A stretch of 63,237 nt of DNA, filler included, from Stramenopiles sp. TOSAG23-6 (Eukaryota), in the NCBI GenBank assembly GCA_900128565.1. It is 34 parts of 34 records of this genome, joined end to end, with 100 filler letters (N's around TTAATTAATTAA, not from the genome) between each part and the next. Parts side by side here need not be neighbours in the genome. Positions count along the whole stretch, not along the records: positions 5,628 to 7,401 come from LT638610.1; 33 more parts are not named here. The stretch is one strand, 5' to 3'. A program made the translations under genes and the position numbers. Within the stretch, counting starts at the first letter, position 1. Every line of letters starts with the position of its first letter. Under the pieces are notes generated by a model. That model was not told the DNA's origin. It did no database searches and saw only the letters and a list, made by a program, of their open reading frames with translations. Below are positions 2,134 to 48,303 of the stretch, piece after piece.

Positions 2134-3535
2134 GGAAGTCGCAAGAAAACAAGTTGATGATGAACGTTTTATTTTTTTTCAATTTCGAATTTATTTTTCA
2201 TAGTAAATTTTGTACCTAACAAATTTAAGTCTTTTTTTTTTGAAATATTTTTCCAAAATACATGGTGCACAAATTATTGATATCAATGTTGATGATGGTT
2301 TGATCGATGGGAAAAAAGCGATGAGTAAGTTTTTAAGACTAGCAATGACTGAACCCGATATATGTCGGGTTCCAATGATGATTGATTCCTCAAAATTTGA
2401 AATTATTGAAGAAGGACTAAAATGGGTTCAAGGAAAATGTTCGTTTTTAAAATTGAATGTACAATTTATATTTTTTTCATACGAAATTTTGTAACTAACG
2501 ATTTTTTTTTACCGGAAAAAAAAAATTCACAATATATCGATTGTGAATTCAATTTCTTTAAAAGTAGGATTAACAGAGTTCAAACGACAAGCTAAAATTG
2601 TAAAACGGCATGGTGCCGCTGTTATTGTGATGGCATTTGATGAAGATGGTCAAGCAGCTACGTATGCTGATAAAGTACGAATATGTAAACGATCGTATGA
2701 CATGTATGTTTTATTTTATTTTTTTTTNCNGNAAAAAAAAAANTCGAATATTTTTTTCATAGTAAATTTTGTACCTAACAAATTTTTTTAGAAAATTTTT
2801 GAAATATTTTTCCAAAATACATTCTTGTTGATCCTTTACAAGTGGGAATGGCACCAGAGGATATAATTTTCGATCCAAACATTTTAACGATTGCTACTGG
2901 ACTTCCTGAACATAATGGATATGTTTTATTTTTTTTTAATTTCGAATTTTTTTTTTCGTACGAAATTTCGTACCTAAACAAAAACGATTTTTTTTTAAAT
3001 ATTTTTTCACAATATAGGTATGCTGTTGACTTTATTCATGCGTGTAGAGAAATTAAACGAATATGTCCATTTTGTAAAATCAGTGGCGGAGTCTCAAATT
3101 TATCATTTGGATTTCGTGGAGTGAATGTTATTCGAGAAGCAATGCATTCAGTATTTTTATATCATGCCATTCAAGCTGGTATGGATATGGGTATGTACGT
3201 TTTCAATTTCGAATTTCAAATGTTTTTTTCATACGAAATTTTGTACCTAACAATTTTTTTTTGATTTTTTTTTTTTTCACAATACATTGTAAATGCTGGA
3301 ATGTTGGAAGTATATGAAGATATTGAACCGGAGCTGAGGTCTTTGGTTGAAAATGTCATCTTAAATCGTAACCAAGGCAATGACTTGACGAATGGTGGTG
3401 CTGCCACTGAAGCTTTACTTGCAAGAGCTGAGAAAGAACGCTTAATCGCCAATTCTTTGAAGAGTGGTAGTAGTGTACAGGTAGAAGTCGCGGCGTGGCG
3501 TTCGAAAACTATTGAGGAAAGATTGACACATTCAT
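2134..3535 (+). CDS. metH: Cobalamin-dependent methionine synthase, pterin-binding domain (partial, multi-exon)
   Basis: Spliced product [21 protein letters not shown]...[31 protein letters not shown]...[33 protein letters not shown]...[14 protein letters not shown]...AGMDMG/IVNAG. These are MetH motifs. Exons 2134-2161, 2264-2438, 2538-2703, 2823-2918, 3018-3194, 3288-3535. Confidence 0.95.
2162..2263 (+). other. Non-canonical intron (GA...AT variant) in metH
   Basis: GAT|gaacgtttt...tgtacctaac...ccaaaatacat|GGT restores [12 protein letters not shown]. Confidence 0.85.
2439..2537 (+). other. Non-canonical GT-AT intron in metH
   Basis: AAA T|gttcgtttt...cacaatatat|CG ATT GTG restores [12 protein letters not shown]. 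Confidence 0.85.
2704..2822 (+). other. Non-canonical GT-AT intron in metH
   Basis: GAC AT|gtatgtttt...ccaaaatacat|T CTT restores RSYD-I-LVD. Confidence 0.9.
2919..3017 (+). other. Family intron, probable AT...AG variant, 99 nt with no in-frame stop
   Basis: AAT GG|atatgtttt...cacaatatag|G TAT GCT restores EHN-G-YAVDF. The exact register is ambiguous. Confidence 0.7.
3195..3287 (+). other. Non-canonical GT-AT intron in metH
   Basis: GGT AT|gtacgtttt...cacaatacat|T GTA AAT restores the conserved GMDMG-I-VNAG. There is no AG dinucleotide in the insert. Confidence 0.92.
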
Positions 3536-3629
3536 GTATATTTTATTTTTTTTTCAAATTCGTTTTTTTTTCGTACGAAATTTTGTACCTAACGATTTTT
3601 TTTTTTTGAAATATTTTTCCAAAACACAT
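3536..3629 (+). other. GT-AT family intron
   Basis: CAT|gtatatttt...cgtacgaaattttgtacctaac...aaaacacat. The 23 nt downstream do not look like MetH (possible chimera). Confidence 0.7.
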
Positions 3630-3841
3630 GGATTGGGATGAAGACGGTCGAANNNNNNNNNNNNNNNNNNNNNNNNNNNNNNNNNNNNNNNNNNNNTTAA
3701 TTAATTAANNNNNNNNNNNNNNNNNNNNNNNNNNNNNNNNNNNNNNNNNNNNTNTGTNAAAAAAAAATAAATTCGAAATTTGTTAGGTACAAAATTTCGT
3801 ACGAAAAATAAATAAATTTGAAATTCATAATGAAAACGTTC

Positions 3842-5431
3842 TATCCTGTGCAGATGTAGGACCACGATACCAATTTAATGAGGTTATTGATCTTCTTAAT
3901 GTTGTACCATTGTATGAAGGTGGTGATGATTCAGTGTGATTCTCCAGTGTTTTTGGCTTTCTATTTTTATCTATTTTGGACGACAAAAATTCAAAAGCTA
4001 AATTTTTGACTAATGTTTCGAGTGTAGCACTTGATACTACTTTCCCTCTTGAGCCGAGTAGATGAAAAATATCTAATTCAAGTTTTTCCGTAGCCGACTT
4101 GATATTGTCTTCATTCTTTTCACCTGGCTTCATTATATTGATATTTGACTCAGTCTCTGGCCTTGGTATACTGTTGCATTGCAGAGAATTATTTACAGAA
4201 GACTGTACCTGTTGTGTTGAAAAAATATTTCAAAACACAAAAAAAATTGTTAGGACNAAANTTCGTACGNAAAAAAAAAATAAATTCGATTTTTTTGTTA
4301 AAAAAAAAAATAAAACATACCTGTAGACTTGGAAAACTGACCATATTCGGATTACAAACCATCTCAATATCTCCATCATCCGTCTTTGGTGCATGAAATG
4401 AAAAATTTAATGACACATCTTTAGAAAATTCAGAATGATTCTTCGATAAATTATTATTACTAGTATCTTTACCCTCTTTTTTTGAAATTGTCATTCTCTC
4501 ACACTGGAGGTCAACTAATGTATTTTGGAAAAATATTTCAAAAAAAATCTTAAAAGATTGTTAGGTACAAAATTTCGTATGAAAAAAATATATTTCAAAA
4601 AAAATCTTAAAAGATTGTTAGGTACAAAATTTTTATAAAAAAATAAATTAGAATTTGAAAAAAAATAAAACATACATGAACGCAACTCTTCAATAGGACT
4701 CTCGTGGCTCTGTTTGAAAGATGAATTGATTTCAGAGACTCTTTTATCTTCAATGTCTTTCAATATTTGTTTTGTGAGAACAATACCAATGGATTATGAA
4801 AAAATATTTCAAACATTAAAATCGTTAGGTACGAAATTTCGTATGAAAAAAAAAACTTAAATTAGAAATTCATATGAAACGTACATTCGTCTAACACTTT
4901 CTTCTATTTCAGTGCACCATTCAAGTACATCATTTCGCTGTCTTACATTTTGCGCTAGTATAAATATACGATCACCAACACCAAATACAAGACTGCGACC
5001 AGGGTTAATAAATTGTGAAAAATATTGTTTTTTTTTGTGGATAAAAAAAATCGTTAGGTACGACATTTTCATACAAAAAAAATAAATAAATTTGAAATTC
5101 ATGATGAAAACGTACATTAACATACTGCGGTAACGTGGACCTGTACCAAGATGATGAACATTCTGCCTTGTCAATCTCTGCCGTATTCTCATCGACCCAG
5201 ATGTTTTGTTTGATCTTTTAGTTTTAATCTCATGTCCCCTAATTTCGTGAAGTGATGTATTCTTCATATTTCGACGAATGCGAGGTGGAGAACCAGCAGC
5301 ACTACGAGAAAAACTTGGATTTATGTTCTTTGCATTTAAAAAACCAGTTGAACCAGCAGCACTACGAGAAAAACTAGTGATTGTGTTCTTCCTTTCTTTA
5401 AGAGGAATTCTTTCAGCAGAATCATGGGAAG
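3842..5431 (-). CDS. Unknown low-complexity protein, multi-exon fragment
   Basis: Minus-strand exons separated by family introns at 4209-4320 (GT-AG), 4518-4675, 4789-4884 and 5008-5115 (GT-AT), with partial copies at both contig ends. Confidence 0.6.
4209..4320 (-). other. Family intron with canonical GT-AG ends
   Basis: On the minus strand: CAG|gtatgtttt...cgtacgaa...cctaac...caacag|GT. Same body as the GT-AT copies, with AG at both boundaries. Confidence 0.75.
4518..4675 (-). other. GT-AT family intron with a tandemly duplicated core
   Basis: Two copies of aaattttgtacctaacaatcttttaagattttttttgaaatat about 57 nt apart. Confidence 0.8.
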
Positions 5432-5682
5432 ATGTATTATGAAAAAATATTTAAAAAAAAAAACTAAAATTTGTTAGGTACAAAATTACGTACGAAAAAA
5501 AATCGANTTTTTTGGTAAAAAAAAAAANNNNNNNNNNNNNNNNNNNNNNNNNNNNNNNNNNNNNNNNNNNNTTAATTAATTAANNNNNNNNNNNNNNNNN
5601 NNNNNNNNNNNNNNNNNNNNNNNNNNNTTTGTACCTAACAAATTTTAGTTTTTTTTTTTTGAAATATTTTTCCAAAATACAT

Positions 5683-7307
5683 GGCATCGATGGAAAATGG
5701 AACAATTGTTCAATTTTTGTCTCTCAAAAAAAAATGCAGTGGGTAACCAAGCTCGACATTGTTTATCACTAGTTCATTGGTTACATTGTACTGCTGATAA
5801 CGTTCGCAGTTATTGCCCTGAGGAATTACCCGAACTTGCCGAAGACTGCTGTGAACAAGCAGGAGTTTGGCTCCAACGCATTAGTGATACAATCGTTGCT
5901 GCTGCGGGATTTCTCACTCAAAAGGTTGCAAATATTGATTCCACTGGCTCTGCTTTATCATATGTTTTGGATAGAATGAATGATAAAGCACGCCCACCAC
6001 CAGGTACGGAAAGTCTTCCATGCAATCGCAAAGTTGTATTAGGAATGACAATGGCAGGACAGCATCTTTGTCAATTATGTTGGACTTTATCTTCCTCTGA
6101 AGCTGTTGTTGTATTTAATCAATTATTTTGTCCAAAATCGTTTTTGCATGCATCACTAAAAAAAGCTTTGCTTGAAGAGGTACGAGCTGCTGCACTAAAC
6201 AAACGAGATGAACCTCATCCATTATCACTTAGTGAAGATCTTCATCATTTTCTCATTGTTTTACAGGCATTTACGCATTATACTAGAATACCAGTGGGTA
6301 ATTTAATTAGGGAAGTCATGATGGAAGAAATGGATACCAGAAGCATATCTCATGTTGGAAATATTGGTCAACCTATTGTCCTTCCACAAGTTTCTAGTCC
6401 TACTTGTGTACGTTTGCAATTTCAAAGTTTTAATTTGTTTTTCGTACGAAATTTTGTACCTAATGATTTTTTTTTCGAAATATTTTTTCACAATACGTGG
6501 ACTTGCACCCACATCTTATATTGGATCTCTATGCTTATTTTTCCAGGCTACTGTGAATGAGCGATTACCCATGCGTGCGGATGCCGTAACTCAGCGAAAT
6601 GGAATTGTGCATTCTCCTTTTGCTGGTGGATATGTTCGATGGCAAAAACCAGATTGGAGACAACATTCTGTACACACATTTCCATTTTTGTGTCAACAAC
6701 AGTTTGAACCCATGTTGCGATTAATGGGACCTTTGGGGAAACGAACAGTTGATGTATGTTTTATTTTTTTTTTTTCAAATTCCAATTTTTTTTCGTACGA
6801 AATTTTGTACCTAACAAATTCTAGTTTTTTTTTTTGAAATATTTTTCCAAAATACATGCACTTCTCCTGAGTATTGCTGTGACTGGAGTTCAAAAATTAT
6901 GTCATGTTGTTATGCAAAATAGAGTTGTTTTACAGGCTTTACGAAAATCAGATGAAGATGGCACTGAACTTCTTTCATCGCTTCAAGGTGGGCGCCTCAT
7001 TGGTTTGAATGAATTTTCTCAAGTCGCAGTAAAAATAGGTCATGTAGGTTTTCATCTTTCATTTAATTTTTTTTTTTGGAAAAGTATGATATCTCACAAG
7101 TTTTATTTAAAAAAAAAAAAAAAAAAAAAAACATATATTTTTTCACAATACATTGTCTAACGATAAGAGAAATGTTGAGAAAAGCACAAGCTTCGATTGC
7201 TCATGAAGTGATGCCAGACATCCAACAATGGTCAGAAAATATGATTGGTCAAGCAAATGAGCCTCTAATGGGATTTGATCCTGCTTCATATTTAGTCGAA
7301 GAATTAT
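5683..7307 (+). CDS. NCKAP1: Nck-associated protein 1 / Hem / NAP1 (WAVE complex subunit), partial
   Basis: PGTESLPCNRKV..LCQLCWTL....VVVFNQLFCPKSFLHASL matches the Nckap1-family PGxES...F.P.EYL segment. Four family introns. Confidence 0.75.
6408..6498 (+). other. Family intron ending in GT (GT at both boundaries)
   Basis: ACT TGT|gtacgtttg...cacaatacgt|GGA CTT joins ORF 5697 to ORF 6352 in frame. Confidence 0.75.
6754..6857 (+). other. Near-consensus GT-AT intron
   Basis: GAT|gtatgttttattt...ttcgtacgaaattttgtacctaac...gaaatatttttccaaaatacat|GCA. Confidence 0.88.
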
Positions 7308-42968: not shown

Positions 42969-44545
42969 TGACAATTTTCAAAATGTTGACAATTTTCAAA
43001 ATGTTGACAATTTTCAAAATGTTCAACATGTAAAAAGAAAGAGAGATGTACCATCTGTGTTGGGATATGATAATATCACTCTTGCTGCTTTATTTAATGC
43101 TCCTCCATTTGATCAGGATTTACCTTGGAAGATGGAAATTGAATTTATGAAAAAAAATATTCAAGGTCCAACAAAAAACAGTTCTGTTCCAATTTTTCCA
43201 TGTCCTAAAAATTGTACAACGTCAACAAAATGTACAAAAATTGTTGATTTACGAAATAATTTTATATTTAAAAAAATATTTCAACTTTTTAATACTTATG
43301 TTGTTGGCCAAGATGAGAATGGTGAACAAAAAATTAAAACTTTAATTCGAAATGCATTAAAAAACAAAACTGTTCAGCCTAACCCTAACCCTAACCCTAA
43401 CCCTAACCCTAGTGGAGATCAAAAAACATTGGACAACATCAAAGATACACGAAATTTGTTAGGTACGAAACTTCCTATGAAAAATGTTGATACTATTTTT
43501 GAAAATTTGTTAGGTACGAAATTTCCTATGAAAAATGTTGAAAATATCTTTACATCACAATTTTCAGTAAATACTGATTTTGTTGTATTTAATGGAAATC
43601 ATCCATTTTCACCAAATACATTTTTACGTGTTACAATTTCCAAAATTGTTTGTTTTCATCATTGCATTTTATTTTTTATTTTCTATATTTTTTTATTTTT
43701 ATTTTTTACACGAAAAAATACAAAAAAATACAAAAAAATCCAATTTTTTTTTTTTTTTTTTTTTTTTCAAAAAACTAAATATTTTTTGTTTTTTAAATAT
43801 TTTTTTACAAAACATGAATTCAACGGACTTGACCAATTTACTCAATTTAATCCACTTCATGTGTTACAGTCCAAATCACCAAGTGAGTTTTATTATAGTA
43901 CAGGAGCAAGTTATACTCTGCAAAGTGAATTTGCTATGGATTATATGTACGTTTTATTTTTTTTCAATTTTTTTTTTTGGTTTCATACGAAATTTTGTAC
44001 CTAACAATTTTTTTTCAATTTTAATTTTTGTGAAATATTTTTTCAATTTTAATTTTTTTTTTTTTTTTTTTTTATAGTAAATTTTGTACCTAACAATTTT
44101 AAAATTTTTTTTTTTGAAATATTTTTCCAAAATACATTGGTGTACGTCTTACCCTCTCCATTGATTCCAATGATGATATACATAACCAAAATAACCCAAA
44201 AACACGAATTATTCGATTAAGTACAAAAGTACGAAATTTAAGTACAAAATTATCGATGCTTCTTGCACTTAATCAAGATAAAATTTTAAATTCACAAATT
44301 GGAGCATTTGTACAACATCCTGTTGCTTGTGGTGGCCATATTTTATCAGCATTTGAAATATCTGAATTTATTGTGAATACAACTTCAATTGATAAATTCG
44401 AAATTGAACACGAAAAAGGTGATTTTATTGGAGATGGTTTGCATACACTATTATCTATCGTTCAGCTTGTTTCAGACAGTTTTGTACAATCCAATTTGTC
44501 TGTGTTATCAAATTTTTATGTTGCTCCTTTACTTACGGAGTATAT
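42969..44545 (+). CDS. Unknown protein, multi-exon fragment
   Basis: Frame is continuous over GT-AT introns 43648-43815 and 43947-44137. Confidence 0.6.
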
Positions 44546-47784: not shown

Positions 47785-47816
<32 letters not shown>

Positions 47817-48303
47817 CGTACGAAATTCTATACCTAACAATTTTTATCAAAAAAAAACATTTCATACGAAATTCTATACCTAACAATTATTTTTTTTTAC
47901 TATTTCATGTTCTACATGGGGAAAGAAAACGAAAAACAATAAAAATTAGTGGAGCCACTGATAAAAAAATGTTACAAAATATAAAGAAATGGGAAAAAGA
48001 GCATGAAAAACAATTTATGTATTTTTTCATTTTTAAAAATTTAAAAAAAAAAAAAAAAATTTATTTTTAAAATTTTTAAATTTTTTAAAATTTTTTTTTA
48101 AATTTGAATTTTTTCTCAATTAGAGTTAGGATTAACAAAAAATTATGAATTTTTTTAAATATATTTATACAATACAGGAAATGGCAACAAATTGATAACT
48201 CTATAAAAAATCCAAGTCTACAAAATTCGACAATGACAAATCATTCAAATATATCAAATAGAACAGAACAATCACAATTTTATAATAGAAATGAAAGTGA
48301 AAA
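46770..48303 (+). CDS. Low-complexity Asn/Thr/Asp-rich unknown protein, partial
   Basis: Long ORF with AAT/ACT/GAT microsatellites. Family introns at ~47773-47917 and 48019-48177 (GT-AG). Confidence 0.5.

Follow-up and report, generated by a model that had tools for sequence, protein, structure and literature searches.

A 63,237-nt stretch of DNA, filler included, from the uncultured marine protist Stramenopiles sp. TOSAG23-6 (GenBank assembly GCA_900128565.1; hereafter the window) holds a core of 25 nt at positions 6791–6815 of its plus strand, in which a perfect 12-nt palindrome (6791–6802) is followed by CCTAAC (6810–6815). Both parts are present as the original prediction described them. 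The question raised by this locus is what the core does and, in particular, whether the palindrome forms a hairpin or protein-binding site that defines the 3' splice site and makes up for a missing AG, as that prediction proposed. The reading that we favor, with a probability of about three in four, is that a young, high-copy element, which forms introns and is spliced out by the major (U2-type) spliceosome, has passed the core on as its middle part, and that the U1 of this spliceosome is matched to the element.

A family of short repeated introns

Near-copies of the core with up to 3 mismatches occur 49 times in the window, 13 of them exact, and 100 shuffles yielded 0. The last 15 bases have 6,993 exact matches in the 21-Mb assembly compared with 1 for the reversed control, and the first of these figures is not a copy number because the assembly contains duplicated contigs. 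Our copy set, drawn from 804,128 bases made up of the window plus about 0.74 Mb of the same assembly, consists of 331 cores, of which 185 had both ends called and 149 had, in addition, one unambiguous reading frame. The layout of the element is exon..AT / GTAYGTTTT, a T tract, the core, a second T tract, AAATATTTTTYCAMAATAY and two further bases before the next exon, over a length of about 85–110 nt.

The flagged copy is a 104-nt phase 0 intron, GT..AT, at 6754–6857 of an NCKAP1-like gene; its ends were called and its removal leaves one open frame. An exon of this gene at 5682–6407 matches Pfam Nckap1 (PF09735, E 1.8e-21). The exonic AT just before the donor (6752–6753) is the left copy of a 2-nt direct repeat and occupies positions −2 and −1 with respect to U1. 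The donor box GTATGTTTT (6754–6762) is complementary to the 5' end of the organism's own U1, which is encoded outside the window (L004:349-508). It is followed by a branch box GTACCTAAC (6807–6815) with a predicted branch A at 6814, facing the canonical GUAGUA of U2, then by the 3' box AAATATTTTTCCAAAATAC (6837–6855), which lies at a fixed distance from the cut, and by the terminal AT (6856–6857), a non-AG acceptor and the right copy of the repeat. Because an internal AG (6823–6824), 33 nt before the modelled end, is an in-frame alternative acceptor for this copy, the AT end is unproven for the flagged copy alone.

Sister introns lie at 6408–6498 (GT..GT, with GT repeated on both sides) and at 7044–7153, where the donor and 3' box are intact and the core is fully decayed, the palindrome and CTAA both being gone. 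In a methionine-synthase-like gene, the element at 2919–3017 starts with AT and ends with AG, and the exon after it has a Pterin_bind match; a second element in this gene (3195–3287) is GT..AT. All of these features are on the plus strand. Elsewhere in the window, internally duplicated cores or 3' halves give longer introns with two or three branch boxes (4518–4675 on the minus strand, 29458–29606, 43981–44094 and 47814–47884). Core copies without a donor or 3' box adjoin TTAGGG-type repeats (43390–43533 on the minus strand, and 1475–1545), and the C-rich telomere strand likewise contains the word CCTAAC. On another contig (L032), several predicted proteins have NPNP repeats that match telomere-like AACCCT runs within coding frames.

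Removal of the element in the sense orientation opened the reading frame in 105 of 119 copies. As controls, cuts shifted by 1 or 2 nt opened it in 38/119, antisense removal in 28/119 and no splicing in 16/119. There are many look-alike introns in unrelated genes and, at the protein level, their precise removal restores the coding sequence. The element is a short, repeated, introner-like intron family in thousands of genes of this protist. It is not the only kind of intron present. The FKBP gene has a canonical CAG/GTAAGT..CTAAC..CAG intron (L005:2398-2497), which means that a single cell has to splice both types of acceptor. A strict script for canonical introns returned 4 matches, none of them clearly canonical, its criteria being too tight. 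The element donor motif had 5,347 matches compared with 180 for its control, and the canonical donor motif showed no excess (210 compared with 439). Canonical introns exist but look like a small minority.

We also searched RNA and environmental data. Three RNA runs and one DNA run aligned to 2745–3650 of the window gave 1,292, 1,161, 4 and 6,823 contigs, nearly all of them on the element. The exon pieces were 99% alike and no spliced joint was among the joints listed, so the support for splicing comes from protein logic and not from RNA. Thousands of element-bearing contigs occur in seawater DNA and RNA runs (X2, X4, X5), which suggests that the family is abundant in the sea; the RNA matches may be DNA or unspliced RNA. 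A search for the core returned nothing in viral contigs and one contig with a full element in metagenome contigs. The closest protein records are labelled, under EukProt, as an uncultured marine stramenopile, and the GAS8 homologues agree with this. Protein searches found no near-identical spliced product, only the public models P0001 and P0003.

Repeated junctions and the spread of the element

Of the 149 copies, 120 end the intron in AT and 4 in AG. Just before the donor, the exon ends in AT in 94 copies, and in 104 the exon-final and intron-final dinucleotides are identical. Of 22 junctions other than AT, 17 have one and the same dinucleotide to the left and right (permutation mean 7.0; 0 of 20,000), which points to a 2-bp duplication; in statistical terms, both sets of identical repeats are those of a target-site duplication. 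Duplication does not account for everything about AT. In 33/149 copies the terminal AT of the intron has no counterpart to its left, some of these being sites at which a conserved residue rules out an AT there, and the first exon base is G in 77/149. These data support the idea that AT is a preferred acceptor and not only a duplicated target. We propose that the element inserts with a 2-bp duplication that would supply the last two intron bases, and that drift or selection may later move these towards AT. A palindromic CATG target was considered and rejected (−3/+1 complementarity in 33/149, p 0.98).

The same duplication signature would be expected if the palindrome were a DNA-level site for a mobilising protein, such as the transposase of a MITE-like element, with no role in RNA. 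We regard this as possible, if doubtful, and it is compatible with our main explanation. Besides the 17/22 repeats, it draws on inverted ends of 3–4 nt and on the fact that an intact palindrome is found chiefly in the copies that have diverged least, which are also richer in identical repeats (59/74 compared with 18/36). The inverted ends are, however, very short and do not co-vary, with an unpaired C-A at +4/−4 in 57/149 copies and mostly unpaired bases at +5 and +6. No autonomous partner was found in a search for one transposase family (PF13359), which gave 5 matches at 2 distinct loci. We rejected a Harbinger-like unit as the partner since the one complete unit has different ends and a TAA duplication. 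That unit (L116:146-2900 with L123, G000:C2432) looks like a complete PIF/Harbinger-like element, with a DDE_Tnp_4 gene, a convergent second ORF and inverted ends of about 25 bp. A lone core lies on the minus strand between its two genes (L116:1056-1090).

Alternatively, the introns may have spread by reverse splicing into AT/G proto-sites picked by the altered U1, in which case the 2-nt repeat would not be a duplication and the terminal AT would be borne by the element. The strict sense orientation, the 33 copies that end in AT with no left AT (residue-forbidden sites among them) and the frequent G at the start of the exon all fit this model. It does not predict the same dinucleotide on both sides of 17/22 non-AT junctions (TT, GT, AC, CT, AG), however, and selection alone can explain the orientation. 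We therefore think that reverse splicing is unlikely, and less likely than a transposase site. Insertion with a 2-bp duplication remains the origin that we favor.

Branch site, palindrome and the choice of the 3' end

To what extent does the core matter for splicing? The core had been described as a long conserved block, one that should stand out from the rest of the element once copy age is allowed for. Instead, conservation is uneven, and the raw mean of the core (0.90) is no higher than that of the donor box (0.92), the 3' box being at 0.87. When copies were anchored by nothing but their ends and CTAA, 40 of 135 retained the perfect 12-nt palindrome, the center of which is the weakest part of the core (positions 4–9, 53–87% conserved). 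In the same copies the GTAC preceding CTAA is 90–98% conserved, as is, at 90–96%, an AAATTT run before the branch box. CpG decay found little support as the source of the variable center (CpG observed/expected 0.92). A 16-nt palindrome had been noted in a TTTCG variant; it is present at 2958–2973, within the AT..AG element of the methionine-synthase-like gene, but is rare (7/135 copies). Two flanking palindromes had also been claimed. The first, AAATATTT, follows the core in 129/185 copies, whereas AATTCGAATT is found in 3/185. TTCGAA occurs in 36/185 copies and the flagged copy has AATTCCAATT instead.

CCTAAC is probably the branch site, as had been proposed. It can pair with the canonical GUAGUA of U2 and is kept in several decayed copies that have otherwise lost the core. 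Among 163 copies identified solely by their ends, 144 have CTAA at 25–60 nt from the end. Of the 23 calls with the greatest decay, 11 retain CTAA and several of the remaining 12 resemble false calls. In GAS8 intron 2, the removal of which is required, the palindrome is lost and CTAAC is kept. The expected spacing of about 35–45 nt between CCTAAC and the 3' end proved correct in its range, being 30–47 nt in 144/149 copies, but not as a single distance since there are two modes, at 32–37 and 40–44 nt. A fixed distance from the branch to the end is thus not what defines the acceptor. By contrast, the 3' box is present in 91 of the 149 copies and begins 19–20 nt before the end in every one of them. 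From the decayed copies that keep CTAAC, the bimodal branch distance and the fixed 3' box, we infer that CTAAC is the likely branch site, that the palindrome is not needed and that the 3' box places the acceptor.

An RNA hairpin, or a protein site, in the core that sets the acceptor by distance or structure in place of AG now seems improbable. There is a 6-bp hairpin over GTAC in the minimum-energy fold of the flagged copy, with a mean pair probability of 0.31, and the conservation of the AAATTT run could be counted in favor of such a model. The check for compensatory pairs that had been called for gave little. Among 142 little-diverged copies, the pair formed by positions 4 and 9 shows 4 T-A and 1 G-C compensated cases compared with 24 broken ones. 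Mutual information for pair 4–9 (0.34) is no higher than that of non-pairs (0.45 for 8–9 and 0.35 for 5–7), so it reflects the decay of whole copies rather than covariation specific to the pair. The 12-nt hairpin has a mean pairing probability of 0.009, and folding of the whole intron is at background, with z of −0.65 for the flagged copy and a median of −0.72 for 50 copies; neither compensation nor better-than-shuffle folding marks a conserved hairpin. The branch distance varies while the 3' box does not, and two required introns (GAS8 intron 2 and 7044–7153 of the window) have no palindrome. Extended complementarity between the core and U2, which had also been suggested, was not seen: the duplex (−1.8 kcal/mol) consists of CUAAC and a few pairs over a bulge. 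For splicing, the palindrome looks dispensable and like a passenger.

In the order of events that we favor, the element lies in sense orientation within genes and, as the DNA and protein data show, has to be removed from its first G to two bases past its terminal ATAY. U2 would then pair at CUAAC, and the preceding GTAC may add a few pairs across a one-base bulge. The separate 3' box would set the 3' cut, with AT preferred and TT, GT, AC and AG tolerated.

This order depends on where the cuts are. Because a dinucleotide is repeated on both sides, the cut is ambiguous between GT..NN and NN..AC. At the 45 junctions where the two dinucleotides differ, GT..NN produced 0 stops and NN..AC produced 4. 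In GMP synthase, the PFPGP of solved homologues is kept only under GT..AT, and there is no nearby in-frame AG. The GAS8/DRC4 gene (L026, minus strand) has four element introns with four different terminal dinucleotides. Exact removal of those ending in AC, TT, GT and AT gave gap-free alignments with 119, 117, 118 and 119 of 119 homologues, and the one informative junction reads L, as in 88 homologues. The homologues are contiguous across all four intron sites; they are at most 68% identical and may be spliced models. At one zinc-finger junction (L100) the other register reads no worse than GT..NN, judged by what we take to be the zinc-finger motif. The flanking dinucleotides showed no dependence on codon phase. 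Donors start with GT in 133/149 copies; the remaining 16 start with AT (8), GC (4), GA (3) or GG (1), with examples at 2162, 2919 and 14679 of the window, and may be tolerated through strong U1 pairing.

That AG acceptors nearby are used and the AT ends are illusory is very unlikely. In-frame AG options exist in 63/149 copies, including the AG-ending copies and the flagged copy; an in-frame AG lies within 30 nt downstream in 57/149, and an internal AG that is in frame and open is found in the flagged copy and 10/149 copies. However, from the branch to +30 an in-frame AG is lacking altogether in 86/149 copies, and of 50 internal AGs 12 keep the frame, a share no higher than chance would give. 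Public gene models P0001 and P0003 read through or mis-cut the elements, and P0003 is wrong at all four GAS8 introns, where it breaks the gap-free alignment. The proteome therefore needs re-annotation. With an AG end in only 4/149 copies, the elements work like U2 introns but are not canonical GT-AG introns.

The least credible reading is that the introns are AT..AC, minor-spliceosome-like or simply shifted by two bases, for which one can cite the resemblance of CCTAAC to the U12 branch motif and the 104/149 junctions left ambiguous by the repeat, but which is opposed by the stops and conserved residues described above, by U1 and U6 registers that fit G as +1, and by the failure to find U11 or U12 in this partial assembly, where the searches were weak and their controls uninformative.

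U1 and comparison with known systems

In this organism, the U5, U2, U1 and U4 genes are in one cluster and U6 is elsewhere. The four lie head to tail (L004:9-645, contig G000:C1146, and also C6122) with spacers of 2, 23 and 5 nt, which leave no room for separate promoters, and they are possibly one polycistronic unit. The U1 gene, between U2 and U4, matches RF00003 over model positions 1–166 (E 7.5e-12). Its score of 54 bits is below the Rfam cut-off of 69.5, and we judged it to be U1 from its structure, Sm site and context. The two assembled copies are identical across the cluster with differing downstream flanks, and both have the predicted start AAACGUACAUGG, which departs from the Rfam consensus AUACUUACCUGG at three positions. 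The changes, at positions 2, 5 and 9, face donor positions +7, +4 and −1, and each is complementary to AT/GTAYGTTT.

The organism's own U1 has more Watson-Crick pairing than the consensus at all three positions: 0.99 rather than 0.00 at +7, 0.40 rather than 0.01 at +4 (0.99 if G-U is counted) and 0.87 rather than 0.04 at −1. The median duplex with the donor is −9.6 kcal/mol for this U1 compared with −1.9 kcal/mol for the consensus, and it is better in 146 of 149 donors; out of 4,455 variants with three changes, this predicted 5' end is the best for element donors. Position +4 is C or T in 99% of donors, as predicted by the G in U1, while its inverted-repeat partner stays A. A C at +4, the stronger pairing base, is commoner in donors lacking the exonic AT (31/55 compared with 28/94, p 0.002), for which subfamily age is an alternative cause. 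We considered whether the U1 5' end could be an antisense copy of the element and rejected this because the element interior is absent upstream of U1. A search for a second U1 with a consensus 5' end gave 58 pattern matches compared with 68 for the control, and the 20 of these 58 checked in Rfam belonged to no RNA family; since the assembly is partial, a second, canonical U1 may be missing from it. A U5-U2 adjacency pattern, used to look for the U1 of relatives, returned nothing in metagenome contigs.

The rest of the machinery is more conventional. The branch-pairing sequence of U2 is canonical and pairs with CUAAC, and ACAGAGA of U6 is intact. A GT donor predicted to pair with U1 and U6, together with a putative branch site complementary to U2, would place the elements among U2-type introns. 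Prp8 is encoded in a 2,021-codon open frame without an element intron (G000:C84:12934-13410, L125), and the part that we compared closely resembles its human counterpart. The stretch that corresponds to human residues 1292–1800 aligns without gaps, and the loop that we presume to lie near the 3' splice site is unchanged. U2AF35 was not among 15 CCCH matches in this partial assembly, all but one C76 repeat having been inspected.

From computed complementarity, we suggest that the donor AT/GTAYGTTT would be read by the U1 changed at positions 2, 5 and 9, and that the splicing machinery and the mobile intron have adapted to each other. A broader and more tentative idea, which we rate somewhat below even odds, is that a mobile element took over most introns and that the one U1 of the host was re-coded to read it, which would have moved the splice code from AG/GT..AG/G to AT/GT..AT/G. 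The change at position 9 may read both the exonic AT and the AT acceptor.

Introners offer the closest parallel for the element. They carry a donor and take their acceptor from a duplication (PMC9860276). According to the accessible part of that paper, they share with the present family a high copy number of look-alike introns in unrelated genes, an element-borne donor and a short duplication that forms the acceptor with mRNA length unchanged. Unlike those introners, the family described here has a 2-bp duplication, an acceptor that is mostly AT and not AG, and a host U1 that matches the element donor. In the portion of the supplement available, 'stramenopil' first occurs in the list of screened genomes rather than in the table of introner-bearing genomes (PMC9860276).

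Non-AG acceptors are known from the U2-type introns of Fritillaria borealis and F. pellucida, most of which escape GT/AG, with AT the commonest 3' end (PMC13326754). As far as the accessible text goes, the Fritillaria YAY triplet before the donor and at the intron end resembles CAT..YAT here. By contrast, F. borealis donors are mostly AG and not GT; it has two U1 versions with identical 5' ends, whereas here the U1 sequence has changed; and its adaptation is described as occurring via duplicated U2AF and m6A (PMC13326754). U1 has co-evolved with donor sites in Entamoeba, Mastigamoeba and Physarum (bioRxiv 10.1101/2022.06.08.495308). In the available part of that preprint, Entamoeba U1 has, like the U1 described here, compensatory changes suited to an atypical donor, one of them an A at position 2 that faces U at +7. 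The two changes in Entamoeba and the one in Mastigamoeba face intronic positions, whereas ours number three, include exonic −1, and go with repeat-derived introns and non-AG acceptors (bioRxiv 10.1101/2022.06.08.495308).

Outside subscription papers and bioRxiv supplements, our literature search found no account of GT-AT introns or a changed U1 in marine stramenopiles, and the accessible parts of PMC5778133, PMC8163842 and bioRxiv 10.64898/2026.04.17.719054 describe neither. Nor did it find, in the texts available, a repeat-derived family that has non-AG acceptors together with a U1 matching it at three positions, the exon side among them.

If U1 positions 9–10 also read the acceptor, the change of C9 to A would let U1 recognise AT in place of AG. 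We treat this link as no more than a lead because TT, GT and AC acceptors also work. In fission yeast, U1 suppressors of 3' splice-site mutations were reportedly engineered in work dating from 1992; here, a comparable change would be a natural, fixed state. The protist would offer a natural example of a core splicing RNA that matches the splice site of a mobile element at three positions, in a genome where the AG rule is the exception. It makes two questions accessible to testing: whether bursts of introners can reshape the spliceosome, and by what means a 3' splice site is selected when AG is absent.
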